In this document: piece after piece, positions 6,653 to 52,607 of the stretch
Numbering within the stretch: position 1 is the first letter of the stretch
Layout: the number at the start of each line of letters is the position of its first letter
Origin: Candidatus Saccharibacteria bacterium RIFCSPHIGHO2_12_FULL_47_16b
Lineage (GTDB): Bacteria; Patescibacteriota; Saccharimonadia; Saccharimonadales; UBA10212
Length of the DNA stretch: 64,000 nucleotides
Direction: 5' to 3'
NCBI GenBank assembly: GCA_001790525.1
Contig: MGCU01000023.1
Span: forward strand, 5,659 to 69,658
Position numbers and translations under genes: made by a program
Notes under the pieces: model-generated
Seen by the model: only the letters and a program-made list of their open reading frames with translations
Told to the model about the DNA's origin: nothing
Databases searched by the model: none

Positions 6653-6661
6653 AGTATACTA

Positions 6662-36027: not shown

Positions 36028-36184
36028 CTCCGGTGCTCGGTTTTCAGTTTACCGTTTACAGTCTTCAGTAAGTTGACAGTTTTCAATTTACAGTTATTCA
36101 GTGTTGCTACATTGATCATTGATAACTGATTGTTCATTGTGAATTGTGAATTGTAAATTGTAAATTGGAATGACGCAGTCATGA
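36028..36184 (-). repeat. Family-2 intergenic module between rpoA and rplQ
   Basis: GAATGACGCAGTCATGACTAG palindrome spanning the rpoA stop. (GAATTGT)/(AAATTGT) and CATTGA tandems. CACCTCCGGTGCTC SD hairpin next to the rplQ start. Confidence 0.6.
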
Positions 36185-37126
36185 CTAGAGCTCCAGGCTA
36201 GCTAGTTTCTCCTTAACCTCTTCCAGGGCCTTATTGCCAAAACCTTTTAGGTCACGCAGTTCGGCTTCGCTCAAAGATATTAAGTCCTTAATGGTATGAA
36301 TGTCATTGTTGATTAAGGCATTGGTGGTTCTGGCACTAAGGTTAAGATCTTCGATGGTAGTCATTAGTTCGGCCGGCTCTTCGCCCTCGGCGCTGACCTC
36401 GCTTATCTCTTCCGGCAAAATTGAACCAGCTTCGACGCGAGTTTGACCCGCTAAAGCCGTGTACTGGTTAACTAAAATGGCAGCGGCTTCTTCAAATGCT
36501 TCACGAGGCGTAATTGTGCCGTCTGTATTGATGGTGATAAGTAATTTATCGAGATCAGTCATTTGGCCGACACGGGTATTTTCCACCTTATAGCGAACCC
36601 TTAAGACCGGCGAGAATAGGGCGTCCATCAATATTAGATCGGTTGCCTTTTTGGTTGAGCCTTGTTCATCAAGCACGCGATAGCCGCGGCCGGCCTCAAC
36701 CATAATCTCGGCATTGAAAGTAGCTTTAGCATCGTCGATAGTGCAAATTAAATGGTCTGGGTTAACTACTTCTACGTCAGCGTTAAGTCGAATATCTTTG
36801 GCAGTTACTTTAGACTTGCCCTTTTTGGAAATTTTTAGGGTTTGCGGTTCATTGCTAAATACTTTAAATCTAATGCCTTTTAGGTTCATCATAATCGCTA
36901 CAACGTCTTCTTTAATGCCAGCTATGGTCGAGAATTCGTGGCTAACACCGTCAATTCTAAAGCCAGTCACGGCTGCACCGGAAATGCTCGATAGCAATAC
37001 TCGACGCAGGCTATTGCCAAGCGTCATACCATAGCCGGGGTGCAAAGGCTCGATGGCAAAGGTTGAACTATACGGTCCATGGTCATCGATTTTGGCTAGT
37101 GATGGGTTGTGAATATATTTAGTCAT
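36185..37126 (-). CDS. rpoA: DNA-directed RNA polymerase subunit alpha
   Basis: Alpha NTD plus CTD (HhH, KGFGNKALEEVKEKL). Confidence 0.9.
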   Translation of the reverse strand: MTKYIHNPSLAKIDDHGPYSSTFAIEPLHPGYGMTLGNSLRRVLLSSISGAAVTGFRIDGVSHEFSTIAGIKEDVVAIMMNLKGIRFKVFSNEPQTLKISKKGKSKVTAKDIRLNADVEVVNPDHLICTIDDAKATFNAEIMVEAGRGYRVLDEQGSTKKATDLILMDALFSPVLRVRYKVENTRVGQMTDLDKLLITINTDGTITPREAFEEAAAILVNQYTALAGQTRVEAGSILPEEISEVSAEGEEPAELMTTIEDLNLSARTTNALINNDIHTIKDLISLSEAELRDLKGFGNKALEEVKEKLASLEL

Positions 37127-37141
37127 ATATAAATCTCCTTG

Positions 37142-37771
37142 TTAACGTGAGTAAAACTCAATAATTAGTTGCTCTTTAATATCTGGCTCAGCGTCATCGC
37201 GGCTTGGTTGACCGCTAAGCTTTATCTTGAAGTTCTTTCTATCAACTTTCAGCCAAGCTGGAGTGGCTGAGGGTGCTGGCGAAAGCTCATCTATATTTTT
37301 GAAGTAACTGGTTGTTTTAGCAGAATCACGGAGTACTAACTCGTCACTAATGTCTAATCTGATTGATGGTATGTCTGTCCGGCGGCCATTTAACATAAAG
37401 TGGCCGTGGCTGACTAGTTGACGGGCTGCCGGCCTGGAAACAGCCAAACCAGCTCGATAGATAACATTGTCCAGCCGTCTTTCTAAAAATTCCAGTAGTT
37501 TTATGCCGGATTCACCTTTACTACGCAATGCCTCGTTTACCAACTTCACAAACTGTTTTTCTAATAACCCATAAAGCCGTTTAACTTTTTGCTTTTCCCG
37601 CAGTTGAAGGGCATATTGGCTGGGTTTTCTGGGCCGGCCACCACCACCTGGCGTCGTACCGGGAGCGGTCGTTCTTTTGACCAAGACCTTATGGGCTTTT
37701 GGATGAAGTGCATAGCCCTCGCGGCGAGACCGTTTTACGATGGAACCTAGGTCCCTAGCCATCAGGCGCAC
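37142..37771 (-). CDS. rpsD: 30S ribosomal protein S4
   Basis: S4 family with S4 RNA-binding domain. Confidence 0.9.
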   Translation of the reverse strand: MRLMARDLGSIVKRSRREGYALHPKAHKVLVKRTTAPGTTPGGGGRPRKPSQYALQLREKQKVKRLYGLLEKQFVKLVNEALRSKGESGIKLLEFLERRLDNVIYRAGLAVSRPAARQLVSHGHFMLNGRRTDIPSIRLDISDELVLRDSAKTTSYFKNIDELSPAPSATPAWLKVDRKNFKIKLSGQPSRDDAEPDIKEQLIIEFYSR

Positions 37772-37865
37772 ATCCGGTGCTCAAAATTCAAAAACCAAAT
37801 ACCAAACATCAGAGGGTTTGAACTTTGAAATTTGAAAATTGAAGTTTGGAATGACGCAGTCATGA
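37772..37865 (-). repeat. Intergenic module between rpsK and rpsD (GAATGACGCAGTCATGACTAG palindrome plus TTTGAAATTTGAAAATTGAAGTTTGG repeats plus GAGCACCGGATGTGC SD hairpin)
   Basis: Same terminal modules as at 36028-36184, with a family-1-like AT-rich core. Confidence 0.55.
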
Positions 37866-38321
37866 CTAGTTCCTTTTAGCCTTTCTTGGTCGAGTGCCGC
37901 CGTGCGGAATGCCAGTCTTATCTCTTATGGTTTCGACGGTTAGTCTCTGATTAATCAATGTCCGGATGGCCGAATCACGGCCCAAGCCAATGCCAGTGAC
38001 GATAACATCTACTTTGGCAATACCGAATGTTTTGGCGTCAGTCAGCGCTTTTTCAGTAGCCACTTGGGCGGCATAAGCTGTTCCTTTTTTCGAACCCCTA
38101 AAGCCGCTGCTGCCGGCACTAGCTGAAGCCAAAACGTTGCCTTGCTCATCGGTTACAGACACAACTGTGTTATTAAAACTTGCCAAAATATGAACTTGAC
38201 CGCGACTAACTTGACGCTTTAGCTTTTTGCGCTTGGTTACGGTCTTTGGTTTTTCGTCAGTAATTTCTGCCGTTTCAACCGGTTTTACTTGTTCACTGCT
38301 TTGACCTTCTTTAACTACCAT
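37866..38321 (-). CDS. rpsK: 30S ribosomal protein S11 (N-terminally extended)
   Basis: S11 core HILASFNNT...; ~25-aa N-terminal extension. Confidence 0.9.
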   Translation of the reverse strand: MVVKEGQSSEQVKPVETAEITDEKPKTVTKRKKLKRQVSRGQVHILASFNNTVVSVTDEQGNVLASASAGSSGFRGSKKGTAYAAQVATEKALTDAKTFGIAKVDVIVTGIGLGRDSAIRTLINQRLTVETIRDKTGIPHGGTRPRKAKRN

Positions 38322-38441
38322 ACGCTCCTTTCAGTCGCTTTAGGGTCTAGGGTGTAGGCTATAGGGGATAGTTTGCCAAAAAGTATTTCTAGACCCTTGC
38401 CCCTTGCCCCTAGTCCCTGATGATGAATGCAATGAATCATC
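38322..38441 (-). repeat. Intergenic inverted repeat spacer (CTAGGGTCTAGGGTGTAGG ... CCCTTGCCCCTTGCCCCTAGTCCC)
   Basis: TAGGG direct repeats on the left mirrored by CCCTAG/CCCCTTGCC on the right: a long imperfect hairpin between rpsM and rpsK. Confidence 0.5.
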
Positions 38442-38828
38442 TTATGTTTTACTCGGTGCTTTCCTAGCGGTTCCACCTACTGTTATACGCTTACCGCGAC
38501 GAGTCCGGGCGTTAGTTCTGGTGCGCTGGCCACGGGTTGGTAAATTAGCAGCGTGGCGTAAGCCACGATAAGCATTGATGTCCTTCAAGCGCTTAATATT
38601 AGCGGTTACTGTTTTATGGAGCTCACCTTCAATGGTGTAATCGCTAGTGATAACATCTTGCAGTTTTGAGATTTCGCTATCTGTCAACTTTTTTACCCTA
38701 ATAGTTGGTTCAATGTTGGCTTTATCAAGGATTTGATGGCTAATCTTTGGACCAATGCCGTAGATGTAAGTTAAAGCTACTTGAACTTGTTTTTCGTCTG
38801 GAATTACCACACCGGCTAGTCGAGCCAT
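38442..38828 (-). CDS. rpsM: 30S ribosomal protein S13
   Basis: S13 family (MARLAGVVIPDEKQVQVALTYIYGIG). Confidence 0.9.
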   Translation of the reverse strand: MARLAGVVIPDEKQVQVALTYIYGIGPKISHQILDKANIEPTIRVKKLTDSEISKLQDVITSDYTIEGELHKTVTANIKRLKDINAYRGLRHAANLPTRGQRTRTNARTRRGKRITVGGTARKAPSKT

Positions 38829-38965
38829 CAGACGTTCTCTCCGGTCGCTTCAAACCCTAAGTTCGAAGTTCTAAACTCTAAAGTTTGGTAATTGGAATTT
38901 AGGATTTGGAAATTGTTTAGAAATTCGGGTTTAGAAATTAGGTATTGGAATGTCGAAGGCATGAC
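38829..38965 (-). repeat. Family-1 AT-rich repeat spacer between rpmJ and rpsM
   Basis: TTCTAAACTCTAAAGTTTGG ... ATTTGGAAATTGTTTAGAAATTCGGGTTTAGAAATTAGG, an inverted TCTAAA/TTTAGA arrangement. Confidence 0.55.
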
Positions 38966-39082
38966 TTAACCTTGCCTCTGTTTATTACGAGGTTTCTTTT
39001 TATTAATCACATAAACTCGGCCTTTGCGACGAACAATGATGTCGCTTGGGCTGATTTTTTTTACGCTAGCACGCACCTTCAT
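38966..39082 (-). CDS. rpmJ: 50S ribosomal protein L36
   Basis: Hand-translated [38 protein letters not shown] (38 aa). Below the ORF-track size cutoff. Confidence 0.8.
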
Positions 39083-39233
39083 TCAGAACTGGTTCTCCCT
39101 TGTTATTCCAGATTTTTCAAAATCGATGCAGTTTGGAGTGAAGACCGAGGATCGTAAGCAAGCTGTATTGCGTAATACTGCGAGTGCGACCCGGAGGTTT
39201 TCGCCCAAAATGCGCGATTTGTGAAAGATCTGG

Positions 39234-39455
39234 TTAATTTTCGCGGTAGGTTATCCGACCCTTCGTCAGATCGTAAGGTGTCAATTCTACCTTAACGCGG
39301 TCGCCAGGCACTAGGCGGATATAGTGTTTCCGCATGCGTCCAGCGATGTGAGCTATAATTTTATGGCCGTTTTCCAATTCGACTTTGAACTGGGTACCTG
39401 GCAGGGCTTCAACAACAGTCCCGGCCAGCTCAATTACCTCTTTTTCACGAACCAT
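39234..39455 (-). CDS. infA: translation initiation factor IF-1
   Basis: S1-like OB fold [31 protein letters not shown]. Confidence 0.9.
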
Positions 39456-39514
39456 AAATATAACCTGAAGATTATATCAAGTCGGAAGGTTTTTTGCAAA
39501 GTGTTTTTAAAGAG

Positions 39515-41038
39515 TTACTTTCGGCGGAAACGAGGCAAACGGGGTCTTGGGATAAAGCGCAGGCGCTTGGCGGCTGTTCCAGGTGGGTAGCTTTCTTCAT
39601 AAAAGTAATCGGGCTGTTCGTATTGATCATAGGTTATCATCAGGGCTCTTGATTCAATTTGACGTAAGGTCTCAAGTGAAACTGATACCAAAATCAGAAT
39701 GCTGGTACCGCCAATAGCTATACTTTGGGTTAAATAGATTTGAGCGATAATTGGCATAACTGCCAAAATGCCTAGAGCGATGGCACCAAACAAAGTCAGG
39801 CGGTTTACAATTTTGCTTAAGTATTTTTCGGTTTGTTTACCAGATCGGACGTTGGCAATAAAACCGCCTTGCTTTTGCAGATTTTCGGCGATCTCTTTAG
39901 AGTTGAAGGTCACGCTAGTATAAAAATAAGTGAAAACAAAAACTAGCAAGAAATAGGTCGCCGGATAAACCCAAGGCTTCCAGCCGCCGGCGGCAAAAGT
40001 AGCCGCGGTGGGGTTTTGAAATAGTTCTGATAAACGAACGCCTAGCTGTTCCCAGCCAGTTTGAGCGGCGTAGGCTACGCCTTGGCCGCGAGTTAAAAGT
40101 TGGCCGGCAAAGCTTGGTACACTCAAAAAAGCTACAGCAAAAATTATCGGGATAACGCCGGCCGTAATTAATTTTACGGGCAAGGTGGTAGTTACTCCGC
40201 CATATGCCCGACTGCCTTGGACTCTTTTGGCGTAATTGACTGTTAGTCGCCGCGAGGCTTCATTTAGTTTCACCACCGCCCAAGTTACAAAAACAGTTGC
40301 TAGCGCTGTTAAACTGATGATTATCAGCCCCCGGCGGCTGAAATTGTGGTTAAAAAGGGTTACTTTGTCGGCCGTCAGATTGTTAGTCCAAGTCGTGACG
40401 CCAGCTAGTTCGGAAATAAAAGTCGGCAGCCGACTGACAATGCCAACAGTTATTAAAAGCGAAATGCCATTACCAATCGAGCGTTCGGTAATAAGTTCGC
40501 CTAACCACATCAGGACCATTGAGCCGCCGGTTAGAGCGGCAATCATCAAAAACCATTCGCCGCCCGAAGCATTAGCGGTTATATCACCGAGTCCGCCGAT
40601 AGCTGAAGCTTGTTGCCTAATAAGGTAGATTAGGCCGATTGACTGAACTATGGCTAAGGGAAAGGTAAGCATCCTGGTATATTGATTGATTTTTTTGCGG
40701 CCAAATTCGCCTTCTTTGTTCATGGCTTCAAACTTTGGAATAGCCCGTGTCAGTAGCTGCATGATAATTGAGGCATTAATGTAGGGGGCCAGCCCGACCA
40801 GCATAATTGAAAAATTAGCTAGCGCCCCGCCGGACAAAACGTTCAAAAAGCCAAGCAGTTGATTAGAGTTAGTTTGGGTATAGAGGTTCTCTAGAACTTG
40901 CTTGAGGGTTTCGGGATCAGATAAAGGTACCGGGATATGGGCTAAAATTCTAAAAACCAAAAGCATGCCCAGTACGGCCAAAATTCGCTTGCGCATTTCC
41001 GTGTGACCGAGCGATTTAAATATCAGCTTCCAATTCAA
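39515..41038 (-). CDS. secY: preprotein translocase subunit SecY with ~60-aa C-terminal extension
   Basis: 10-TM SecY core. The C-terminal extension is YDQYEQPDYFYEESYPPGTAAKRLRFIPRPRLPRFRRK. adk and map are absent between secY and infA. Confidence 0.9.
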   Translation of the reverse strand: MNWKLIFKSLGHTEMRKRILAVLGMLLVFRILAHIPVPLSDPETLKQVLENLYTQTNSNQLLGFLNVLSGGALANFSIMLVGLAPYINASIIMQLLTRAIPKFEAMNKEGEFGRKKINQYTRMLTFPLAIVQSIGLIYLIRQQASAIGGLGDITANASGGEWFLMIAALTGGSMVLMWLGELITERSIGNGISLLITVGIVSRLPTFISELAGVTTWTNNLTADKVTLFNHNFSRRGLIIISLTALATVFVTWAVVKLNEASRRLTVNYAKRVQGSRAYGGVTTTLPVKLITAGVIPIIFAVAFLSVPSFAGQLLTRGQGVAYAAQTGWEQLGVRLSELFQNPTAATFAAGGWKPWVYPATYFLLVFVFTYFYTSVTFNSKEIAENLQKQGGFIANVRSGKQTEKYLSKIVNRLTLFGAIALGILAVMPIIAQIYLTQSIAIGGTSILILVSVSLETLRQIESRALMITYDQYEQPDYFYEESYPPGTAAKRLRFIPRPRLPRFRRK

Positions 41039-41088
41039 AACAGACTTACCCTCTCAATTTTTAATAGTATAGCAGGCGCCTTTACTTT

Positions 41089-41553
41089 TTAAGCCTTGGT
41101 TTTAGGGCGGGCCTGACGTTCAATCTTTGTAAAGCTGCCGCCGGCTTTTTTAACAGCCGCTATCGCTGCCTGACTAGCCGATTGTAGCTTTACTTCTTTT
41201 TTCGAACTAAAATCTCCTTTAACAACCAGCTTAACCTTGGTGTACGGGCTCTCAACCAATCCGACGTCAAATAAGGCTTGATTATCAATTGTCGGCTTTT
41301 TAACGAGCGGAAGTTGAGAGGTATAGACGGTTTCGGTCTTTGGCCGGTGGCTGGTAAAACCACGCAGATGGGGCAAGCGCATATAAATTGGCATTTGACC
41401 ACCTTCAAAGCCGGGTCGAACTCCGCCGCTTTTTCGGGCGCCCTGGCCCTTGGTGCCGCGTCCGGCAGTTTTGCCTCCACCGGCACTTATACCCCGGCCG
41501 ACCCGCTTAGCAGATTTTAGTCGCTTGGTTTTTAACTCGTGGTACTTGGTCAT
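41089..41553 (-). CDS. rplO: 50S ribosomal protein L15
   Basis: Gly/Arg-rich L15 N-terminus [19 protein letters not shown]. Confidence 0.85.
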
Positions 41554-42452: not shown

Positions 42453-42454
42453 GG

Positions 42455-43012
42455 TTACGCCGCTGTTGCCTCCTTGCCGCTCTTACCACTTTTACGGATA
42501 ATCTGTTCACCCTCGTAGCTTATTCCCTTGCCTTTGTATGGTTCAGGCTTTTTAAAGGCTCGAATCTCGGCCGCCACCTGACCCACTTTTTGCTTGTCGG
42601 CGCCGCTGACGGTAATAATATTTTGATCAACAGATAGACTTACACCCTCCGGAATTTTATAAATAACATCATGTGATAAGCCTAGGTTCATTTTAAGGTC
42701 AGTGCCTGATAATTGGCTACGGTAACCAACTCCACTTAATTCAAGTTTTATGTCATAACCTTGGCTGACGCCGGCAATCATATTTTTAAGTAGCGAACGC
42801 ATGAGACCGTGCTTGGCTCTGGTAATCGCTGTCTCATTTTGGCGATTAACTTGCAATTGATTATCCTTAACCGTTACTGTTATGTCGGCCAGCTTGGCTT
42901 GCTTAAGTTTACCTTTTAGTCCTTCAATATAAATAAAGTCTTTATCTACGATTACAGACACGCCAGGCGGTACAGCAATTGGTTGTTTACCGATACGACT
43001 CACAGAAGGCAC
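42455..43012 (-). CDS. rplF: 50S ribosomal protein L6
   Basis: Two L6 alpha/beta repeat domains. Confidence 0.9.
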   Translation of the reverse strand: MPSVSRIGKQPIAVPPGVSVIVDKDFIYIEGLKGKLKQAKLADITVTVKDNQLQVNRQNETAITRAKHGLMRSLLKNMIAGVSQGYDIKLELSGVGYRSQLSGTDLKMNLGLSHDVIYKIPEGVSLSVDQNIITVSGADKQKVGQVAAEIRAFKKPEPYKGKGISYEGEQIIRKSGKSGKEATAA

Positions 43013-43241
43013 CTCCGGTGCTCAATTATCAATTCACAATTATCCCCACACCAAAAACTTGAAGCTCCATAATCTGATTGCAGACTACTCCGCTCAGGTT
43101 TTGGTGCAGGGTAAGCAATGCTCAATGAATTATCAATTAGCAATTTGCAACTACTGGCTGCAGTTTGTTTGATAAATGACAAATGAGAAATTAATGGTAA
43201 ATGGTAAATGGTAAATGGTAAATGGAATGATGGAGTCATGA
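43013..43241 (-). repeat. Family-2 intergenic module between rpsH and rplF, carrying a nested ~70-nt hairpin mini-element
   Basis: The rc matches the 6662-6831 element module by module (AAATGGTAAATGG tandems, CATTTGTCATTTATCAAACAAACTGCA, CAATTATCAATTCACAATTATC, GCACCGGAGGTGC) with an extra insert at 43044-43111. Confidence 0.7.
43044..43111. repeat. ~70-nt hairpin mini-element, copy 2 (inverted relative to copies 1 and 3)
   Basis: CCCCACACCAAAAAC...CATAATCTGATTGCAGACTACTCCGCTCAGG...GTTTTGGTGCAGGG. The core is the rc of GAGCGGAGTAGTCTGCAATCAGATTATG. Confidence 0.55.
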
Positions 43242-43631
43242 CTAGTAGACCTCGCAAATTAATTCGCCGCCAATACCCTTTTTTCTAGCAGCCAAGCCGC
43301 TCATGATGCCTTGGGAAGTTGATAAAACTACTATACCGCGGCCAGCTTTGATGCTTGGAATCTCCGAGGCTTTAACATAATGGCGCCGGCCTGGGCGACT
43401 GACTCGTTTAAGTTCTGTTATAAGCGGCGACTGATCTAGTCCGTAAAGGAGAATTTGCAACTCTTTTCGATCATCCACTTGATTTGCCTTAACACTCGCC
43501 AAAAAGCCACTTTGTACTAAAACTTGAGCTACATCGTGCTTGATTTTTGAATGTGGCAAATTAACTTCATTTTTGCCGGTTGCCAAGGCGTTGCGAATTC
43601 GTGCTAACATATCGGCGATTGGATCAGTCAT
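43242..43631 (-). CDS. rpsH: 30S ribosomal protein S8
   Basis: S8 family. The stop lies in the GAATGATGGAGTCATGACTAG palindrome. Confidence 0.9.
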   Translation of the reverse strand: MTDPIADMLARIRNALATGKNEVNLPHSKIKHDVAQVLVQSGFLASVKANQVDDRKELQILLYGLDQSPLITELKRVSRPGRRHYVKASEIPSIKAGRGIVVLSTSQGIMSGLAARKKGIGGELICEVY

Positions 43632-43728
43632 ACGCCACTCCTTTCAGTCGCTCTAGAAACTAGGAAATAGGAAATAGGAAATAGTGATTTTACTAATTTC
43701 TGATTACTAATTTCTAATTTCATAATCC
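43632..43728 (-). repeat. Family-3 imperfect long hairpin spacer (AACTAGGAAATAGGAAATAGGAAATAG / ACTAATTTCTGATTACTAATTTCTAATTTC)
   Basis: Homologous to 24275-24368 and 59567-59665. Confidence 0.55.
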
Positions 43729-43998
43729 TTACCAGCTGCTTTTAGTTACACCCGGTATTTCGCCTTTGGCAGCATGTTCTCTAAAAGCAATCCGGCTTAA
43801 ACCAAACTGACGCATATAACCACGGGGCCGGCCAGTTTCAGCGCAGCGGTTTTTACGACGAGTCGGCGACGAATTACGGGGTAGTTTGGCTAAGCCAGCA
43901 TAATCACCAATAGCCTTGAGCTGGGCTCTTTTAGCAGAGTATTTTTCAATCAGTTGCAAACGCTTAGCATCGCGGGCCAGATTTGATTTTTGGGCCAT
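43729..43998 (-). CDS. rpsN: 30S ribosomal protein S14 (long, non-zinc form)
   Basis: S14 family. 89 aa, no C4 cluster. Confidence 0.85.
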
Positions 43999-44236
43999 CA
44001 GGCAACTCCTTCCGTCGTTGCAATTATCAATTCACAATTATCAATTTTCAACGATTTATCAAATATCAATTTACAGATTAAAGCAGAGGTTGCAGCTAGT
44101 TTGGTAAATGGTAAATGAGAAATTAATGGTAAATGCCTGCCCCGCATCAAATCCTGAGCGGAGTAGTCTGCAATCAGATTATGCAGCATCAAGATTTGGT
44201 GCCGGGGGTAAATGGTAAATGGTAAATGGAGCAATT
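43999..44236 (-). repeat. Family-2 intergenic module between rplE and rpsN, carrying nested hairpin mini-element copy 3
   Basis: CAATTATCAATTCACAATTATCAATTTTCAACG..., (AAATGGTAAATG) tandems, and the GCAATTTCATTGC palindrome at the rplE stop. Confidence 0.6.
44140..44208. repeat. ~70-nt hairpin mini-element, copy 3
   Basis: CCCCGCATCAAATCCTGAGCGGAGTAGTCTGCAATCAGATTATGCAGCATCAAGATTTGGTGCCGGGGG. The termini are an imperfect inverted repeat. Confidence 0.55.
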
Positions 44237-44833
44237 TCATTGCGACCTCTCCTTTTCAAACGGCATGCCTAATTTCTCCAGTAAGGCCTTGGATTGCTCA
44301 ACCGATGAGCTTGATATATTGAAGGTTATTTCCAGGCCGTGTGGTATAGCTGTATCCTCGTACGTTAATTCCGGAAAAACAGTTTGATCGGCTAGTCCGA
44401 TAGTATAATTGCCCTGGCTATCAAACGATTTGTTGCTTAAACCGTGGAAGTCACGCAAGCGAGGTAGGACTAAGTTTACCAAACGATCAGCAAATTCGTA
44501 CATTCTTTGACCGCGCAGGCTTACTTTTAGACCAATTACCACACCCTGTCGAAGTTTAAATGCCGCAATCGCTTTTTTAGATAAGGTCTTAACTGGCTTT
44601 TGCCCGCTGATTTTCATGAGCGTATTTTCCGCTACATCTATCAGCTTTTTATCGTCTTTAGCTTTACCTAGGCCGACGCTAACAATAACTTTTTCTAGCC
44701 TTGGTACCTGATGAAGACTTTTAAGTCCCAGTTGGCCCTTAAGTTCAGGCGCGTACTGCTCTTTAAACAACGAGCCTAGCCTAGCTTTATAGGCCGGAGG
44801 TGCTTTTTTAGTAGTCTGTGCTTGAGCAACCAT
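44237..44833 (-). CDS. rplE: 50S ribosomal protein L5
   Basis: L5 family. Confidence 0.9.
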   Translation of the reverse strand: MVAQAQTTKKAPPAYKARLGSLFKEQYAPELKGQLGLKSLHQVPRLEKVIVSVGLGKAKDDKKLIDVAENTLMKISGQKPVKTLSKKAIAAFKLRQGVVIGLKVSLRGQRMYEFADRLVNLVLPRLRDFHGLSNKSFDSQGNYTIGLADQTVFPELTYEDTAIPHGLEITFNISSSSVEQSKALLEKLGMPFEKERSQ

Positions 44834-45150: not shown

Positions 45151-45521
45151 TACAGTACCTCCGGCGCCAGTGAAGCAATTTTAGAAAAACCCTTTCGGCG
45201 AAGCTCGCGTGGGACTGGGCCAAAAATACGAGTGCCTCTTGGCGACCGGCTATCTTCGGCTAGCAAGACAGCGGCATTATCATCAAAGCGGATTATCGAG
45301 CCGTCTTTGCGCTTAATCGGGCTGCGGGTTCTGACAATAACGGCTTTGACTACACTTTTGCGCTTGACGCCACCAGTTGGGTTGGCCGTCTTAACGCTAG
45401 CTACTATCAGGTCGCCGACGCCACCATAGCGACGACCACTGCCGCCAAGAACTCGTATACAAAGAAGCTCGCGAGCACCGCTGTTATCAGCAGCGATTAA
45501 GCGGCTCTGTTGCTGTATCAT
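45150..45521 (-). CDS. rplN: 50S ribosomal protein L14
   Basis: Start refined to the internal ATG ([18 protein letters not shown]..., 123 aa). The ORF-track frame is open 39 codons further upstream with no plausible start. Confidence 0.9.
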
Positions 45522-45573
45522 AAAGCTCCTTTCTGCCGCAGTAGTGAGTAGACAGTAGTGAGTAGTAAGTAAT

Positions 45574-46053
45574 TCACTTTTTAGACTCCTTCGGTGAACT
45601 TTTTTCGGAAAGTTGGTCCTTGCTTGCTGGCTTAGCATTTTGTTTGTCTTTTACTGTCGCCTGCCTGCTGTCCACTGGTTTCTGTCCAGTCTCTTCTGGA
45701 CTCTGGACTCGGGACTCTGGACTCTTTGCCTTAAGCTTCGGTTGGGGCTGTTGCTTTTTTGTAAGTTCTTCAATTGGCACATCGGCAGTAACGTCAGTTT
45801 CTTTATAGCCAATGCGAGCTTTATCGACAATTTTTTCCAGAACAAAATGCTTACGAGCACTTAATGGTCGGCTTTCACGAATAATAACTTTATCGCCAGT
45901 TTTAGCTTCGTTCTTCTCGTCATGGGCCATAAGCTTTTTACTAACGGAATACCGCTTCTTGTAAACAGGATGCGTCTTAGCAGAAGTCACCATAACGACG
46001 ATGCTTTTATCATTCTTATCACTCACTACCATACCTAAAATTAAGCGGGCCAT
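45574..46053 (-). CDS. rpsQ: 30S ribosomal protein S17 with ~75-aa Lys/Pro/Ser-rich C-terminal extension
   Basis: S17 OB-fold core in the first ~85 aa. The tail is ...[61 protein letters not shown]. Confidence 0.85.
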
Positions 46054-46253
46054 TACATTTTCTCCTTGGCCAATTGTTCACTCATAACCGTCATCATCCT
46101 GGCCAGATCTCTACGCTTAGTCCGGATAACCCGGACATTAGCTAACTCACCGCTATATAGGCGAAGCTTTAGTTCAGTAATTTCATCTCGAAGTTTAGCT
46201 GACTCCTTGACCAGATCGCCAGTGTCTAATTTACGAATATCAGCTATTTTCAT
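46053..46253 (-). CDS. rpmC: 50S ribosomal protein L29
   Basis: 66-aa helical L29 family. Overlaps the rpsQ start. Confidence 0.8.
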
Positions 46254-46675
46254 TAGGCCACCTCTTTAGCCAGAAATTCAGTTTGGACCGGTAATTTATG
46301 GCCAGCTAGGCGCATTGCCTCACGGGCGATCTCTTCGCTAACGCCATCCATTTCAAACAAAACCGTACCGGGTTTAACCTTGGCCACGAAAAACTCTGGG
46401 TTACCCTTACCGCTGCCCATCTTGACGTCTTGTGGTTTACGAGTAACTGGCGTATGCGGAAAGATACGAATCCAAATTGAGCCGCCGCGCTTGACATAGC
46501 GAGTCATGGCTTGTCTGGCAGACTCGATTTGACTGGCGCTTATCCTATCGGAGTCCAAACTGATAAGGCCGTATCGGCCATAAGCTAGCTCATTTATCGA
46601 AGTGGCTCGGCCGCCATGAATACGCCCTTTCCTTACTTTTCGGTACTTGGAACGTGATGGCATTAGCATACGCAC
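46253..46675 (-). CDS. rplP: 50S ribosomal protein L16
   Basis: L16 family (RGGRATSINELAYGRYGL). Confidence 0.9.
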   Translation of the reverse strand: MRMLMPSRSKYRKVRKGRIHGGRATSINELAYGRYGLISLDSDRISASQIESARQAMTRYVKRGGSIWIRIFPHTPVTRKPQDVKMGSGKGNPEFFVAKVKPGTVLFEMDGVSEEIAREAMRLAGHKLPVQTEFLAKEVA

Positions 46676-46832
46676 CTCCGGTGCTCAATTACCAATTCAC
46701 AATTTACATTTTTCAATAAGTTTTCATTTATCAATTTATAAATAGAAAATAAGTCTGCAGCCAGTTTGTTAAATGACAAATGCAAAATAAATGGTAAATG
46801 GTTAATGGAAAATGGAAAATGGAATGACGCAG
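46676..46832 (-). repeat. Family-2 intergenic module between rpsC and rplP
   Basis: GCACCTCCGGTGCTCAATTACCAATTCACAATTTAC..., (AAATGG)n tandems, and the GAATGACGCAGTCACGA palindrome variant at the rpsC TGA stop. Confidence 0.6.
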
Positions 46833-47465
46833 TCACGATAACTCCCCCCGATATATCCAAACCTTCACGCCAATTAGTCCAGCGCCTGGGTAAAGGGCGC
46901 TGGCTTTAGCAAAATCAACATCAGCTCTAATAGTATGAAGCGGCACGCTACCTTGAACTTCCTTCTCGCGTCGGCTCATCTCGGTACCGCCCAGTCGGCC
47001 GGAGACTTCAATCCGAACTCCTTTAGCTCCGGCGCGCATGGATGATGCCGCTGCAGCTTTGACAGCTCGCCGAAACATAATTCTTTTTTCAAGCTGATGA
47101 GCAATATTCTCAGCCACCAATTTGGCCTGCAATTCCGGTCGTTTAATCTCTTCGATGTTGACCCTAACCGGAACTTTAAAGATCTTTTCAATCGCCTGCT
47201 TTAGTTCAGTTGCGCCGGTACCGCCTCGACCTATTACTACACCAGCTTTTGCGGTCTGTAGGGTGACAGTTACAAGATTGGGCGAGCGCTCAATGTCAAT
47301 TTTACTAACAGCCGCCCGCGAGCCAAGTTTAACTTCAATCAGCTTGCGAGCAGCTAGGTCTTGCCGCAAAAACTGGGCATAATCCTTTTTAGAGGCAAAC
47401 CATTTACTGCGCCAGTCTTTAGTGAGCGGTAAACGCATGTTGATTGGGTTAACCTTCTGCCCCAT
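46833..47465 (-). CDS. rpsC: 30S ribosomal protein S3
   Basis: KH domain plus S3 C-terminal domain. Confidence 0.9.
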   Translation of the reverse strand: MGQKVNPINMRLPLTKDWRSKWFASKKDYAQFLRQDLAARKLIEVKLGSRAAVSKIDIERSPNLVTVTLQTAKAGVVIGRGGTGATELKQAIEKIFKVPVRVNIEEIKRPELQAKLVAENIAHQLEKRIMFRRAVKAAAASSMRAGAKGVRIEVSGRLGGTEMSRREKEVQGSVPLHTIRADVDFAKASALYPGAGLIGVKVWIYRGELS

Positions 47466-47586
47466 CAGACGCTCCTCCCAGTCGCTTCAAGCTCTAAACT
47501 CGAAGCTCGAAACCCTAAAATTCGGAATTTAGAACTTAGTGTTTGGGATTTGTTTAGAAATTCGGGTTTAGAAATTAGAGTTTCCA
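47466..47586 (-). repeat. Family-1 AT-rich repeat spacer between rplV and rpsC
   Basis: CTCTAAACTCGAAGCTCGAAACCCTAAAATTCGG ... ATTTGTTTAGAAATTCGGGTTTAGAAATTAG. Conserved leader AGCGACTGGGAGGAGCG next to the ATG. Confidence 0.55.
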
Positions 47587-47967
47587 TTATTTAACTTTCT
47601 TTGTATGTTCGGACGATGGCTTTTTAACAACTCTCTTTTCTCCGTCAACTAACACTTTGATGTGGCTAGTTTTATGCTGGTATGGCAAAGCTCGGCCTCG
47701 GGCCGCTGGTCGGTATCGTTTAAGACGTAAACCAGCGCCAACTGTTATTTGGCTAATGTATAGGCTATCCGGCTTGTAGTTGTGATCGTGCACGGCATTG
47801 GCTCTAGCGCTAACAATAACTTTTTTTATGGTAACGGCCGCTCGCCGAGGCGTATGCTCTAGGATGGTAATAGCGTCATTGACAGATCGGCCACGTACCA
47901 AAGAGGCCACTAGTGCGGCCTTGCGCGGACTAACTCGAGCGCTACGATATTCGGCTTTAACTGGCAT
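47587..47967 (-). CDS. rplV: 50S ribosomal protein L22
   Basis: L22 family. Confidence 0.85.
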
Positions 47968-48376
47968 CGGTTTGGCCTTCCTCTGGTTGAGCTGTTACAC
48001 CTTCGGCTGATTCTTCCTTAGCCGCCTCCGGTTTGGCAGCTTCAGCTTTACCGGTTTTACCAGCCTCGGTAGCTGGTGCAGCTGTCTTCATCGCTTCGGC
48101 TTCTTCTAGGCTCTTGGCTAGTTTGCCGCCGTGAACCTTAAACTTTCGAGTTGGGGCAAATTCACCTAGCTTGTGACCGACCATATTTTCTGTAATAAAG
48201 ACCGGTATATGGACTTTGCCATTATGTACGGCAATAGTTCGCCCAACGAATTCCGGCGGAATCGATGAAGCTCGAGCCCAGGTTTTGACAGCTGTTCGGT
48301 CGTCGGCCGACATAGCGGCTATCTTTTTGGCCAGCTTAAAATCAATAAACGGCCCTTTTTTGAGCGATCTACCCAT
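47957..48376 (-). CDS. rpsS: 30S ribosomal protein S19 with ~45-aa Ala/Glu/Lys-rich C-terminal extension
   Basis: S19 core ([33 protein letters not shown]). Tail [34 protein letters not shown]... Confidence 0.85.
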
Positions 48377-49234
48377 TTATTTTCTCCTGCCTTCGTGCCG
48401 CGCCCGGATGATGTACTTGTCCGTCGTTTTACGGCGCCGAGTTTTATAACCTAGTGTCTTTTGACCCCACGGCGTTGTCGGTGGTCTAGCCATTTTATGA
48501 CGACCGCCATCTCCACCACCATGCGGATGATCGGCTGCCGCCATAACTACACCTCTGACTGTTGGTCGAATGCCCCTGCGTCTGGTTCGACCGGCCTTGC
48601 CAACTTGAACATTTTGTTGCTGCTCATTGCCGACTGGTCCAATCGAAGCCATTGCTTCAGCTTGGAAAAGGCGTATTTCGCCGCTTGGTAAGCGGACCTG
48701 GGCAGATTTACCATCTTTGGCTAGTAGTTGAGCGGCAGTGCCGGCACCACGAGCTACTTGCGCACCGTGGCCAGGTGTAAGTTCTATGGCGTGGATAGTC
48801 GTGCCAGTCGGGATATTCTTAAGCGGTAATCGGTTGCCTCGGCTAATTGGCACTTCTTCATCAACTTTTACCTGTCGGCCAACCCGCATGCCTTTGCTGG
48901 CGATAATATAGTGGTAGTTGCCAGCTTGATCTTTTAGGCGGGCGATTTGGGCGCTCCGGTTAGGGTCGTATTCTATCTGTTCAACTGTGGCAACACTGCC
49001 GCGTGGTAGCTTAAAATTCACTTGTCGCCAAAACCGTTTGGCGCCACCACCACGGTGACGTGTGGTGATACGACCGCGGTTATTGCGAGCAACCGACGCT
49101 CGTTTTACTCTGACTAGACTCTTGAGCGGTTTTTTAGTCGTAATTTCCGAAAAATCGGGCGAGCTCATCCCACGTTGGGAGGGAGTAGTTGGCTTATATT
49201 CTCTAATAGCCATCTTATAGAACCTTTCTGTCAC
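48377..49234 (-). CDS. rplB: 50S ribosomal protein L2
   Basis: L2 family (HPHGGGDGG motif). Confidence 0.9.
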   Translation of the reverse strand: MTERFYKMAIREYKPTTPSQRGMSSPDFSEITTKKPLKSLVRVKRASVARNNRGRITTRHRGGGAKRFWRQVNFKLPRGSVATVEQIEYDPNRSAQIARLKDQAGNYHYIIASKGMRVGRQVKVDEEVPISRGNRLPLKNIPTGTTIHAIELTPGHGAQVARGAGTAAQLLAKDGKSAQVRLPSGEIRLFQAEAMASIGPVGNEQQQNVQVGKAGRTRRRGIRPTVRGVVMAAADHPHGGGDGGRHKMARPPTTPWGQKTLGYKTRRRKTTDKYIIRARHEGRRK

Positions 49235-49559
49235 TCTTTTTAACTTCTATATCTGATTTTTCAGTCTCCGTAAAAAACGGTAAACTCTGGCCGCTTTGCA
49301 AAGTTACATAAGCCTTCTTGTATGGTTTGTGATGAACCCTAATAAAGCGACCACGTTTCCGATAAAATCTTAACGGCTTAGCTGACGAAGCAGCTAGTCG
49401 GACAGTGCTAATCTCAACCTTATATTGTTTTGCAACCATATCAGCAACTTGTTGTCGGCTGGCATTTTTTGGGACAACAAAGATATAGGTATTTAGCTCC
49501 TGACTCTGCCGATAAGCCTTTTCGCTCATCTGTGGTTTGATAATTATCGCCGCCTTCAT
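49215..49559 (-). CDS. rplW: 50S ribosomal protein L23
   Basis: L23 family. Confidence 0.85.
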   Translation of the reverse strand: MKAAIIIKPQMSEKAYRQSQELNTYIFVVPKNASRQQVADMVAKQYKVEISTVRLAASSAKPLRFYRKRGRFIRVHHKPYKKAYVTLQSGQSLPFFTETEKSDIEVKKSDRKVL

Positions 49560-50215
49560 TTACTAGCCTCCCTAACGGTGGTTTTTTGACCAAGCCAAGC
49601 ATGGATAATTTCCACGGCTTTTTTGGATAAAACAATACTGTCTGCATTTAGCACATCAAAGACTGTCAAATAATTGGCGGCTACCGCTTGGACGTTGTCC
49701 AAATTCCTGGTAGCTCTATCAACTAACTCGTCCTTTTGTGAAACTACCAATAAGACCGAGCCTTTGGTGCCGATTTTCTGTAGCAGACTAATGGTTGGCT
49801 TAACTTGGCCGCTGGAACAATCGAAAGTTTCGATAACGCTAATTTTGTCGGAATTTGCGGCTAGGCTTAGAGCTTGACGCAACGCTTGGCGTTTAGTCTT
49901 GAGACCGATTTTACGCTGATAATTTTCGTAGCCAGTTGGACCAAAGGCCACACCGCCACCCCGCCAAATCGGGTTACGTCTGGAACCAAAACGCGCCTGT
50001 CCAGTACCCTTTTGGCGCCACGGTTTACGGCCGCCGCCGCGGACTTCGCCCCGTCTTTTAGTTTTAGCCAAGTTTGTTCTACCGCTCGATTGATAAGCCA
50101 GATAAGCATCCTGTAAAAGCTGATGGTTAATGTCGGTCTGACCAAATATAGACTTATCAAGCTTGGCTTCCGTCTCGGCTTTAGTGCCAGTTTTAGTATA
50201 GGTCGGTACCGCCAT
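49556..50215 (-). CDS. rplD: 50S ribosomal protein L4
   Basis: L4 family. Confidence 0.9.
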
Positions 50216-50336
50216 CAGGCGCTCCTTCCAGTTGCTTCAAGCTCTAAGTTCGAAGTTCTAAGCTCTAAATTTTGGTATTTAAAACTTCGAGTTTGGTATT
50301 TGTTTAGAGTTTCGAGTTTAGGAATTAAAGCTTTCT
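50216..50336 (-). repeat. Family-1 AT-rich repeat spacer between rplC and rplD
   Basis: AAGCTCTAAGTTCGAAGTTCTAAGCTCTAAATTTTGG ... TTTGTTTAGAGTTTCGAGTTTAGGAATTAAAG. Confidence 0.55.
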
Positions 50337-52603: not shown

Positions 52604-52607
52604 AGTT

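Follow-up and report, generated by a model that had tools for sequence, protein, structure and literature searches.

Spacers in Saccharibacteria ribosomal-protein operons look like palindromic heptad cassettes read as tiny relay genes

In a Saccharibacteria (TM7) genome, spacers of 52-238 nt interrupt 11 junctions of the S10/spc/alpha cluster, whose genes lie on the minus strand. The favoured reading is that these are ORF-preserving, probably mobile palindromic cassettes that work as translational relays. Judged from their sequence, they look like inserts that persist in the operon by being translated as tiny relay genes.

Results

Organization of the spacers

We analysed a 64-kb stretch of this genome, hereafter the window. 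At the equivalent junctions in most of 80 other Saccharibacteria loci the genes are separated by -4 to about 30 nt, in agreement with the initial annotation, which had singled out the long gaps between ribosomal-protein genes. It had further concluded that the operon is not tightly packed, which is true of the ribosomal-protein genes themselves; at the level of open reading frames the operon is still tightly packed, because small ORFs overlapping both neighbours span the spacers. The AT-richness described for the spacers does not apply to all of them (GC 0.29-0.47, window mean ~0.45).

The elements of the cluster are as follows (gap lengths in brackets):

36018..36184, minus strand: rpoA>L17 cassette (157 nt), family 2; mini-ORF 36018..36182 (54 aa); leader TCATGACTGCGTCATTCC, left arm AATTTAC/AATTCAC, right arm GTAAAYT/GAAAACT, tail GAGCACCGGAGG
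37762..37865, minus strand: S11>S4 cassette (94-103 nt); mini-ORF 37762..37863 (33 aa), its TGA overlapping the S4 ATG; same leader as the rpoA>L17 cassette (TCATGACTGCGTCATTCC), TTCAAAN arrays opposite TTTGRNN arrays
38315..38441, minus strand: S13>S11 cassette (120 nt); mini-ORF 38315..38440 (41 aa); G+C-richer units, GGGGCAA opposite CCCTAGA
38828..38965, minus strand: L36>S13 cassette (147 nt), family 1; mini-ORF 38828..38962 (44 aa)
38966..39082: L36 gene
43000..43241, minus strand: S8>L6 cassette (229-238 nt), family 2; mini-ORF 43000..43239 (79 aa from ATG); left arm (CATTTAC)x4, right arm holding a nested 68-nt hairpin (43044-43111)
43628..43728, minus strand: S14>S8 cassette (97 nt), family 3; mini-ORF 43628..43723 (31 aa), ATGA overlap on S8; AGAAATT/AGTAATC arrays opposite CTATTTC arrays
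43998..44240, minus strand: L5>S14 cassette (238 nt), family 2; mini-ORF 43998..44240 (80 aa), ATGA overlap with L5 and TGATG overlap with S14; left arm holding a nested 68-nt hairpin (44140-44207), orientation opposite to the S8>L6 copy
45522..45573, minus strand: one-armed heptad array at S17>L14 (52 nt), ACTACTC-type units; stop-free, without a start codon of its own
45664..45727, minus strand: heptad palindrome in frame within the S17 C-terminal extension, GAGTCCA x4 opposite CTGGACA/GTGGACA
46663..46838, minus strand: S3>L16 cassette (157-166 nt), family 2; mini-ORF about 46663..46836 (57 aa from GTG); leader GTGACTGCGTCATTCC overlapping the S3 stop
47465..47587, minus strand: L22>S3 cassette (121 nt), family 1; mini-ORF 47465..47587 (40 aa), TAATG and TGATG overlaps
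50215..50340, minus strand: L3>L4 cassette (121 nt), family 1; mini-ORF 50215..50340 (41 aa), ATGA and TGATG overlaps

Related elements lie elsewhere in the window:

118..288, minus strand: family-1 cassette downstream of a 6-phosphogluconolactonase-like gene; 56-codon open frame
6653..6835, plus strand: family-2 cassette between a hydrolase gene and a glycosyltransferase gene (both plus strand); mini-ORF 6665..6835 (56 aa)
16237..16352, minus strand: dnaX>dnaB cassette, family-2-related; mini-ORF of 36 aa
23051..23139, minus strand: heptad palindrome in frame within the L1 N-terminal extension, CAGTCNN x3 opposite GAGACTA x4
23604..23735, minus strand: nusG>L11 cassette, family 1; 43-codon open frame
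24271..24372, minus strand: secE>nusG cassette, family 3; mini-ORF of 33 aa
30884..31034, minus strand: holB-like>TPR cassette, family-2-related; ORF of 40 aa ending 10 nt before the downstream start
59556..59665, minus strand: S12>S7 cassette, family 3; mini-ORF of 35 aa
60063..60191, minus strand: rpoC>S12 cassette, CAAACTY units opposite TTTGATT units; 42-codon open frame

The three module families of the initial annotation were recovered at most of its sites (family 1 at 38829, 47466, 50216, 23612 and about 130; family 2 at 36028, 43013, 43999, 46676, 16247, 30884 and 6653; family 3 at 43632, 24275 and 59567), while others need correction: the units at 37772 and 60080 are of the TTCAAA type rather than family 1, with a family-2 leader at 37772, and the 53-nt site at 12637 is a weak case. 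The fixed orientation relative to genes holds for all copies, including the sole plus-strand copy (6653-6831), which is oriented to transcription exactly as the minus-strand copies are.

The modules are inverted pairs of tandem 7-nt arrays. This heptanucleotide periodicity is common to all module families and had been overlooked: period 7 accounts for 41 of the 58 TRF rows in the window, and autocorrelation of non-genic sequence rises to 0.355, 0.319 and 0.298 at lags 7, 14 and 21 (baseline about 0.26), a signal absent from coding sequence. The cassettes, which form several dispersed palindromic families of roughly 95-240 nt, share one order. At the sense 5' end the stop codon of the upstream gene is overlapped or closely trailed by an ATG or GTG; there follow a short leader, often a mini-hairpin (e.g., ATGAC-TGC-GTCAT), a left arm in which 7-nt units recur 3-8 times in tandem, a loop, a right arm whose 7-nt units are roughly complementary to these, a tail with a Shine-Dalgarno (SD) sequence (GCGACTGRAAGGAGCG or GAGCACCGGAGG) and a stop that overlaps the downstream start as TGATG, TAATG or ATGA.

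The complementarity of the two halves claimed earlier is evident. In a 61-position fold-back, 66% of cells pair in register, compared with 31-43% when the partner is slid, and CA...TG rungs at 7-nt steps are invariant in nine elements from four genomes. The duplex between arms of the same element (-26.6 kcal/mol) is more stable than that with arms from other genomes (-16.4 kcal/mol), the own pairing being stronger in 58/65 (p = 5e-11). Why this complementarity is kept is not covered by the open-frame model described below, and the palindrome may have a role at the DNA or RNA level.

A stop-free frame joins the upstream stop to the downstream start

Across 65 such spacers from 12 genomes, a stop-free frame occurs in 47 on the sense strand and in 9 on the antisense strand (Fisher p = 1e-11), with about 15 predicted by shuffles. 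The register of these frames is also constrained: in 41/48 the stop that closes the frame overlaps the ATG of the downstream gene (binomial p = 1e-13). Stops occur in the other two frames at 0.082 per codon; in the 238-nt L5>S14 spacer they contain 10 and 7 stops, and the relay frame none. Likewise, wherever a unit of the L22>S3 cassette would put TAA or TAG into the relay frame, the sequence has GAA, ACA, CGA or TCG instead. A fully open frame is absent from 18/65 spacers, several (not all) of which have gene starts estimated by tblastn.

Translation signals accompany the frame. The frame begins at a codon that touches or overlaps the upstream stop and in most cases follows an SD-like motif; of the 17 mini-ORF starts in the window, 11 have such a motif at -16 to -6 (background 10.6%) and six lack one, and some mini-ORFs begin with GTG or TTG or start 12-18 nt past the upstream stop. 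In the ORF listing of the window the mini-ORFs tile the operon with 1- or 4-nt overlaps, and public gene calls in other genomes have the same layout (ftsE, 48 aa, ftsX; S11, 48 aa, S4; S8, 54 aa, L6). These sequence statistics suggest that the cassettes are translated.

The 7-nt arrays probably grow by replication slippage. We propose that a cassette would persist in an operon only as long as one of its frames has no stop. Ribosomes done with the upstream cistron would re-initiate at the cassette start codon, read through both arms while unwinding the hairpin, and terminate a little beyond the cassette's own SD, where the stop codon overlaps the following start, so that translational coupling along the operon would be kept. 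Occasionally a cassette is joined in frame to an adjoining gene and forms a ribosomal-protein extension, as seen in S17 and L1.

Folding potential is not specific to the sense strand

The initial annotation read the spacers as long imperfect RNA hairpins. On this view the hairpins would serve in the polycistronic mRNA as RNase III/E/J sites, exonuclease stabilisers or insulators that set relative cistron expression, and the open frame would be secondary. We regard this as unlikely, even though the arms are complementary, the mean fold z-score is -2.3, the leader of some copies (e.g., S11>S4) can pair with the downstream SD and start-codon region, and the stem of the leader mini-hairpin, ATGAC..GTCAT in the window, is GATGC..GCATC in genome L027, a compensatory change. 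The minimum free energy is lower on the antisense strand in 47/65 spacers, and the antisense z-score (-2.55) does not differ significantly from that of the sense strand; since the antisense folds as well or better, the G-U signature of selection on a sense RNA is missing. The RNAalifold covariation terms (+2.44 and -0.19) are nil or unfavourable, about 66% of positions pair with mismatches recurring at 7-nt steps, and an Rfam search of the elements returned no family match. Nor does an RNA role account for the frame- and register-specific lack of stops. Hairpin potential and fixed orientation thus stand, whereas these results give no indication that sense-strand structure is the selected feature. 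Translating ribosomes would melt the hairpin, so that the functions suggested for the spacers (RNase processing, stabilisation, insulation or an array of protein-binding sites) are possible but neither required nor backed by the data; promoter-like and terminator-like sites are not enriched in the spacers.

Distribution and probable copying of the cassettes

Elements occupy 21 of the 77 co-directional junctions in the window and none of its 8 convergent or divergent ones. The modules are thus not specific to ribosomal-protein operons, being present at 11/27 co-directional junctions inside the cluster and at 10/50 elsewhere (Fisher p = 0.06), a distribution that largely tells against the initial reading.

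Several observations indicate that the cassettes are probably selfish or neutral, copy-prone elements. Genome L004 carries three near-identical copies of 103-106 nt at L23>L2, L5>S14 and S5>L15, where its sister L002 has a plain TAATG; related genomes show a simple SD-N5-8-TAATG overlap wherever the junction is empty. Element-bearing genomes are scattered across the Saccharibacteria tree, the occupied junctions differ from genome to genome, and the nearest relatives of the window genome lack the elements. Between genomes the left arms share 80-95% nucleotide identity, while the ribosomal-protein genes there share 64-75% (60-73% at the amino acid level). Yet the same family is also found at the same junction in non-sister genomes, the window sharing S8>L6 with L142 and L173, S11>S4 with L142 and L171, and S14>S8 with L159; this is not predicted by random transposition, and the flanking coding DNA of these genomes shows no raised identity. 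The 64-kb window contains no transposase, and the elements lack a clean target-site duplication; what is duplicated is the SD...ATG context.

It is improbable that the spacers are instead by-products of mutation in situ, formed in each lineage by heptanucleotide slippage and quasi-palindrome template switching, devoid of mobility and function, and purged wherever they break coupling. Such an origin would suit the one-armed array at S17>L14 and the skeleton kept while unit sequences vary between genomes, as well as the prevalence of heptanucleotides, the commonest long simple-repeat class in prokaryotes, ascribed to polymerase slippage (Mrazek 2007, as summarized in PMC4679880). It does not explain why the L004 copies are near-identical up to and including the last upstream codons and the downstream SD-ATG, why distant genomes are so similar within the elements, or why the same families sit at ribosomal and non-ribosomal junctions (ftsE>ftsX, secA>M16).

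The encoded peptides are not under selection

That the mini-ORFs are true small-protein genes of 31-80 aa, for instance ribosome-associated micro-proteins, with the repeats a coding quirk, seems very unlikely to us. They do possess a start codon, SD, open frame and overlapping stops, and 42 homologous ORFs with a near-invariant LKIVNCKL motif are present in the protein database. However, that motif is merely the in-frame reading of three AAATTGT units, and the two halves of the peptide are encoded by sequences complementary to each other. Across 23 distinct family-2 ORFs, mismatches are spread evenly over the codon positions (0.45/0.41/0.44) with a pN/pS of 1.18, whereas S14, L29, S8 and L14 at the same loci give about 0.2/0.17/0.58 and 0.03-0.12. 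Moreover, one architecture is common to several unrelated families, the elements are missing from the nearest relatives, Pfam and NCBIfam searches with the peptides gave no matches, and the AlphaFold prediction has low confidence (pLDDT 64.8, pTM 0.26). The peptides are not under selection as proteins, and each is a by-product because its sequence is not selected.

By analogy with HutP (NAG-N4 triplets), cold-shock domains and ToxR heptads, the spacers might be arrays of sites for a protein that reads a DNA or RNA motif every 7 nt, as the strict spacing and the invariant CA (left arm) and TG (right arm) of family-2-type elements in four genomes would allow, but this is extremely unlikely given that the units are unrelated between families (TTCTAAA, CATTTAC, AGAAATT, GACAAGA, AGTCCAA, GAATGAA and others) with no common motif, that we found no candidate protein and that the open frame is left unaccounted for.

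Discussion

Termination-reinitiation coupling at overlapping stop and start codons (ATGA, TAATG) is known in ribosomal-protein operons, and the same punctuation marks either end of the cassettes proposed here to be relays. The difference would be the non-functional cistron apparently interposed as a relay, an arrangement of which we know no described case.

Among dispersed repeats, REP, BIME and REPIN sequences are likewise extragenic palindromes inside operons, with long-hairpin potential and an effect on mRNA stability, but they consist of non-periodic, untranslated 20-40-nt units found in both orientations, with a conserved GTAG head, and are mobilised by RAYT transposases. ERIC, large BOX and Anabaena MITEs are small, non-autonomous, hairpin-forming, dispersed and co-transcribed with genes, and some carry ORFs of unknown function (PMC10969869). 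Unlike MITEs, the elements in the window lack a recognisable terminal inverted repeat with target-site duplication and a partner transposase, are strictly oriented with transcription, and have both ends at translation punctuation.

The closest known relatives, as far as analogy goes, appear to be the heptanucleotide repeats and the Rickettsia palindromic elements (RPE). The former include the TAACTGA repeats of Beggiatoaceae, cyanobacteria and Bacteroidetes (PMC4679880) as well as the cyanobacterial STRR, and also the heptamer repeats that Nostoc carries close to start codons (bioRxiv 10.1101/2022.06.06.494920). Like the cassettes, they are tandem, intergenic and gene-oriented, lie just upstream of starts and inside ribosomal-protein operons, and have a patchy phylogenetic distribution that suggests horizontal spread. 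They form, however, one direct array of one heptamer per genome, with no partner array or ORF reported, whereas here many different heptamers occur, always as two inverted arrays, and the frame that contains them has no stops and is equipped with a start and SD of its own.

The RPE (Ogata et al. 2000/2002, reviewed in PMC10969869) belong to a different host phylum and are unrelated in sequence (NCBIfam, including its RPE models, gave no matches to the elements), and the tandem 7-nt units are a feature of the cassettes. As the review presents them, RPE are inserted inside genes and their peptides are reported to be conserved, in contrast to the mostly separate mini-cistrons placed exactly between stop and start here, with a pN/pS of about 1. 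Common to RPE and the cassettes are multiple families of palindromic repeats of roughly 100-150 bp in a reduced genome, and a reading frame that stays open; RPE are translated together with their host genes, as the cassettes probably are, and two copies here are fused in frame into S17 and L1.

Long spacers in the ribosomal-protein operons

No bacterial gene arrays are more conserved or more compact than ribosomal-protein operons, and the genomes of Saccharibacteria are highly streamlined. Between 35 and 51 kb of the window every gene lies on the minus strand, in the order L3-L4-L23-L2-S19-L22-S3-L16-L29-S17-L14-L24-L5-S14-S8-L6-L18-S5-L15-SecY-IF1-L36-S13-S11-S4-RpoA-L17-L13-S9, with L30 absent. 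The initial annotation had singled out long gaps within this S10/spc/alpha cluster, and our measurements bear it out: at 11 junctions, written here as upstream gene>downstream gene, the genes are 52–238 nt apart, compared with mostly -4 to about 30 nt at the matching junctions of 80 other Saccharibacteria loci.

Gaps at the 11 junctions of the ribosomal-protein cluster
L3>L4, minus strand, 121 nt
L22>S3, minus strand, 121 nt
S3>L16, minus strand, 157–166 nt
S17>L14, minus strand, 52 nt
L5>S14, minus strand, 238 nt
S14>S8, minus strand, 97 nt
S8>L6, minus strand, 229–238 nt
L36>S13, minus strand, 147 nt
S13>S11, minus strand, 120 nt
S11>S4, minus strand, 94–103 nt
rpoA>L17, minus strand, 157 nt

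Seven contigs of this organism that were assembled independently (ENA, JGI, Logan) agree with the window to 99.9–100%, spacers included, and the gaps are therefore not assembly artefacts. These contigs display zero changes in spacer length, a comparison that is uninformative on turnover, and we set hypervariability between strains aside. Among 185,579 species genomes the closest L5 proteins, most of them labelled Saccharibacteria or Saccharimonadales, are only 61–66% identical, so that the window represents a Saccharibacteria (TM7) lineage with no close kin among sequenced genomes; the genome and metagenome collections contained nothing nearer than about 66% L5 identity, and no sister for allele comparison.

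The spacers are paired inverted arrays of heptamers

According to the initial annotation the spacers are built from three module families, namely TTCTAAA/TTTAGAA runs (family 1), CATTGA tandem-type repeats (family 2) and AACTAG-type hairpins (family 3), and all three proved to be dispersed repeats. Five family-1 copies align across about 130 nt with a mean identity of 67%, seven family-2 copies share a common backbone, and the leader TCATGACTGCGTCATTCC is found five times where 0.03 occurrences were expected. The list of family-1 sites stands in part, 37772 and 60080 carrying TTCAAA-type units and 12637 being marginal.

What had been missed is a period of seven: Tandem Repeats Finder gave period 7 in 41 of 58 rows for the window, and the base autocorrelation of intergenic DNA reaches 0.355, 0.319 and 0.298 at lags 7, 14 and 21 over a baseline of about 0.26, coding sequence having a 3-nt period only. 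Each element consists of a left array of three to eight heptamers and a right array of roughly complementary ones. At least eight different heptamer units are present in the window, always as inverted pairs; they are unrelated between families (TTCTAAA, CATTTAC, AGAAATT, GGGGCAA), and other genomes carry GACAAGA, AGTCCAA, CAGGTAT, GAATGAA or CAGTATT. A motif common to all families, CA/TG every 7 nt, was rejected, as it holds in family 2 only.

The elements lie within operons, being found at none of eight convergent or divergent junctions. The specificity for ribosomal-protein genes implied by the initial annotation was not upheld, with an element at 11 of 27 co-directional junctions in the cluster and 10 of 50 elsewhere (p = 0.06); those outside include dnaX>dnaB, holB>TPR, secE>nusG>L11, rpoC>S12>S7 and a plus-strand hydrolase>glycosyltransferase junction. 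Long intergenic regions without the period resemble ordinary operon boundaries.

Several neighbouring arrangements differ from this pattern. The S17>L14 spacer (45522–45573) holds a one-armed array of ACTACTC-type units with no partner arm, in which one frame is stop-free and has no start codon; it could be a cassette in decay or one in formation. The secY>infA spacer (39456–39514) is non-periodic, contains neither adk nor map, and harbours the region's best promoter-like site (TTGCAA-17-TATAAT with TG upstream, 39499–39471). The classical S10 operon is split in the window, since two genes, a UPF0047 gene (51266–51655, minus strand) and a PCC-domain gene (51680–52135, plus strand), part S10 (52268–52660, minus strand) from L3. 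At the convergent junction of S10 and the PCC-domain gene (52136–52267) lie inverted arrays of 9-nt units, AATTAACCT and TTAGAACAA, with a period other than 7 and no open frame, perhaps a terminator-like structure working in both directions, perhaps a repeat of a different kind.

One sense frame is kept open between neighbouring genes

Almost all heptad spacers have a single sense frame, here called the relay frame, that is free of stops from the upstream stop to the downstream start codon, a feature absent from the initial annotation; the remaining two sense frames meet a stop every 3–15 codons. Over 65 heptad spacers from 12 genomes, a stop-free frame was present on the sense strand in 47 and on the antisense strand in 9 (Fisher p = 1e-11), shuffles predicting about 15, and in 41 of 48 cases the open frame lay in the register terminated by a TGA or TAA that shares bases with the downstream ATG (binomial p = 1e-13). 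The two other frames contain 0.082 stops per codon, which puts the chance of an open frame at about 0.01 for 54 codons and about 0.001 for 80. Gene starts in the other loci were estimated by tblastn, which explains part of the 18 spacers whose frame is not open throughout.

The absence of stops is thus specific to frame and register, and translation signals accompany it. At the 5' end of the cassette the start codon either shares bases with the upstream stop (ATGA, TAATG) or lies 1–5 nt beyond it (TAG-TC-ATG), a few copies having 12–18 nt between the two, and a Shine-Dalgarno (SD)-like motif stands at -16 to -6 of 11 of 17 mini-ORF starts against a background of 10.6%. The ORFs form overlapping chains with their neighbours:

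50337–50951, minus strand, L3
50215–50340, minus strand, mini-ORF
49556–50215, minus strand, L4
44237–44833, minus strand, L5
43998–44240, minus strand, mini-ORF
43729–43998, minus strand, S14

The L22>S3 copy retains TAA and TAG in units falling in phases 1 and 2, and all would-be phase-0 stop units are replaced by GAA, ACA, CGA or TCG. Public gene calls in other organisms have the same layout (ftsE/48 aa/ftsX, S11/48 aa/S4, S8/54 aa/L6, L24/52 aa/L5 and L5/33 aa/S14), the overlaps always being 1 or 4 nt. Among long spacers without heptads in other Saccharibacteria, at ribosomal-protein junctions of six loci (L013, L050, L072, L058, L045 and L173), 13 of 41 are open in the same register, some over 67–89 codons, and the heptad cassettes may be only one type of a wider junction mini-ORF phenomenon.

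The predicted peptides evolve neutrally

A relay frame with start, stop and SD could encode a real small protein (for example the predicted peptide MTASFHLPFTIY...). A family-2 peptide profile retrieved 42 ORFs of 40–85 aa among 5.8 billion proteins, none with a Pfam domain and the few named ones called hypothetical, and the window peptides had no match in Pfam or NCBIfam at E <= 1 beyond noise. AlphaFold run on an alignment of 28 sequences returned a low-confidence model (pLDDT 64.8, pTM 0.26). In a set of 23 different family-2 ORFs, drawn from 12 genomes or more, mismatches are spread evenly over the codon positions (0.45/0.41/0.44) with a pN/pS of 1.18, as opposed to about 0.2/0.17/0.58 and 0.03–0.12 for S14, L29, S8 and L14 at the same loci; the near-invariant LKIVNCKL is simply three in-frame AAATTGT units. 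The purifying selection on amino acids that marks a conventional protein-coding gene was not seen. We therefore rejected the small-protein reading: the frame is kept open while the amino-acid sequence drifts freely.

The arms are complementary and the sense RNA has no folding advantage

The initial annotation had also proposed that the two halves of a spacer pair into long imperfect RNA hairpins. Complementarity of the arms is real, if imperfect: the duplex energy is -26.6 kcal/mol with a spacer's own arms and -16.4 with arms from other genomes, the own-arm duplex being better in 58 of 65 spacers (p = 5e-11). Nine family-2-type elements from the window and three other genomes (L004, L002 and L052) align with zero indels and with invariant CA...TG rungs every 7 nt; folded back over 61 positions they are 66% paired in register and 31–43% when slid. 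The hairpins in sense RNA fared less well. RNAfold, which the initial annotation had proposed for each spacer, gave z-scores from 0 to -3.7 in the window. Over the 65 heptad spacers the minimum free energy (MFE) is lower on the antisense strand in 47, and z-scores do not differ significantly (sense -2.3, antisense -2.55), so that there is no G-U signature in the sense RNA; a structure specific to that strand was rejected on these grounds. RNAalifold, run on family 1 and on the cross-genome family-2 alignment, gave no covariation support (terms +2.44 and -0.19). Promoter-like and terminator-like sites do not exceed shuffles and none falls within the arrays, the spacers lacking the G+C-rich stem and U tract of an intrinsic terminator, and Rfam had no match in 35900–50450 in gathering mode or at E <= 1. 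The palindrome may be a mere trace of how the elements arise or are copied, or may add a property at the RNA or DNA level.

The sole known cis-regulatory RNA detected in the window is an L10 leader (Rfam RF00557, 46.5 bits) at 19756–19886, upstream of L10.

Distribution is patchy and conservation exceeds that of the flanking genes

We compared 64 kb of the window genome with segments of at most about 20 kb from others. Of the first 81 sequences examined, 12 have heptad spacers; these belong to lineages scattered over the ribosomal-protein tree, and the window's nearest relatives (L001, L005 and L007) have zero. The filled junctions differ from genome to genome; within the L002/L004/L052 clade a junction filled in one genome can be a plain ...AAGGAG-N6-TAATG... 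overlap in its sister. L004 carries three near-identical copies of 103–106 nt, at L23>L2, L5>S14 and S5>L15, which have in common the final codons and the stop of the gene upstream (GGATTCCAAATGA) as well as the SD-ATG of the downstream one.

Families of the window recur in distant genomes at 80–95% nucleotide identity, the ribosomal-protein genes of which are 64–75% identical in nucleotides and 60–73% in amino acids. The left arm of the S8>L6 spacer, for instance, matches L142 at 88–90%, L171 at 91.5% and an ftsE>ftsX copy in L168 at 94.7%. When the window was compared junction by junction with L142, L171, L173, L159, L027, L004 and L002, the same family was found at the same junction in non-sister genomes (S8>L6, S11>S4, S14>S8 and S3>L16), at 80–94% identity for the cassettes and only about 60–75% for the adjoining coding DNA. 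Random transposition does not account for this sharing, and nor does simple vertical descent. For the shared S8>L6 elements, a recent transfer of an entire operon segment was rejected because identity of the flanking coding DNA is not raised. No transposase was found among about 60 genes scanned in the 64-kb window. Saccharibacteria take up DNA by natural transformation and recombine it (PMC10633639), which offers a possible route for cassette exchange.

Cassettes inside ribosomal proteins and a nested hairpin

Two ribosomal proteins contain an in-frame heptad palindrome: S17 in its C-terminal extension (45664–45727; 159 aa, where other Saccharibacteria have a median of 109) and L1 in its N-terminal extension of ~125 aa (23051–23139; 324 aa in all), which suggests that cassettes can be absorbed by neighbouring genes. 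Two further extensions have no heptad periodicity, a 48-aa Ala/Glu/Lys-rich one at the C terminus of S19 (47957–48376; 139 aa, median 91) and an acidic one of about 75 aa at the N terminus of the L7/L12 ORF (18577–19179).

A G+C-richer hairpin of 68 nt (CCCTGCACCAAAACC...GGTGTGGGG, MFE about -29 to -33 kcal/mol) is nested in opposite orientations in two family-2 cassettes (43044–43111 and 44140–44207), both of which are 72 nt longer with the relay frame still open. Between tRNA-Gln and a hydrolase gene there is a 27-nt partial copy (5571–5597), and the other loci retrieved contain none. The hairpin looks like a second, orientation-free mini-element.

A model for the cassettes

The spacers are best explained as ORF-preserving, heptad-periodic palindromic cassettes, whose translation, coupling and mobility we infer from sequence. 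Arrays would arise through 7-nt slippage, in keeping with heptanucleotides being the commonest long simple repeats in prokaryotes, as Mrazek 2007 is summarised in PMC4679880, and cassettes would then be copied from junction to junction and genome to genome. Ribosomes would re-initiate on the cassette and terminate at the next start, and the coupling so maintained would let cassettes persist in operons.

The cassettes stand a fair chance of being a distinct class, for which we use the term relay cistrons. The fuller proposal, to which we give somewhat less than even odds, is that these undescribed heptad-periodic palindromes spread among Saccharibacteria, insert exactly between cistrons and are tolerated there. 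Spread would perhaps proceed via natural transformation and recombination at the conserved SD-stop/start punctuation, and tolerance would come from the cassette's own stop, start, SD and open frame. From the presence of relay cistrons one would conclude that these ultra-small bacteria depend on unbroken termination-reinitiation to translate their operons, and some of the ribosomal-protein extensions that typify the candidate phyla radiation would stem from such cistrons as well.

It was unexpected to find apparently translated repeats at 11 operon junctions, adding roughly 500 codons per pass. If the relay reading is true, they amount to a natural experiment on how far downstream cistrons depend on coupling in the candidate phyla radiation, selfish DNA can colonise essential operons harmlessly, and lineage-specific ribosomal-protein extensions (S17 and L1 here) gain a concrete origin. 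Mini-ORFs are annotated as dozens of "hypothetical proteins" per genome, though neutral at the amino-acid level, and inflate protein-family counts in the candidate phyla radiation.

Comparison with known repeat systems

Full-text searches naming Saccharibacteria, Patescibacteria or Candidate Phyla Radiation turned up no account of elements of this sort. Closest to them is the Rickettsia palindromic element (RPE), a protein-coding palindrome found in frame in the genes of a reduced genome (PMC10969869). Like it, the window cassettes are dispersed palindromic repeats of about 100–150 bp in several families; they have no homology to RPE families in Pfam or NCBIfam at E <= 1 beyond noise, and their peptides are not conserved. 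Two copies (S17 and L1) are in-frame fusions of the RPE kind, and about 18 others are separate predicted mini-ORFs between genes. The heptanucleotide LSSR, STRR and TAACTGA repeats are likewise tandem 7-nt direct repeats, longer than chance and mostly intergenic, but are simple direct arrays of one heptamer per genome or lineage, whereas the window combines many units in inverted pairs. In Beggiatoaceae and cyanobacteria, TAACTGA repeats are found directly upstream of start codons and within ribosomal-protein operons (PMC4679880), and the Nostoc heptamer repeats (bioRxiv 10.1101/2022.06.06.494920) similarly recall the window arrays; both are single direct arrays of one unit for which no ORF or partner array is reported. 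A MITE has terminal inverted repeats flanked by a target-site duplication; the arms here are inverted arrays, the ends are a stop/ATG leader and an SD/ATG tail, and only the SD...ATG context is duplicated. Finally, REP/BIME elements are 20–40 nt long, RAYT-associated, headed by GTAG and found in both orientations, whereas the cassettes have no GTAG head, span 95–240 nt and keep to a single orientation.
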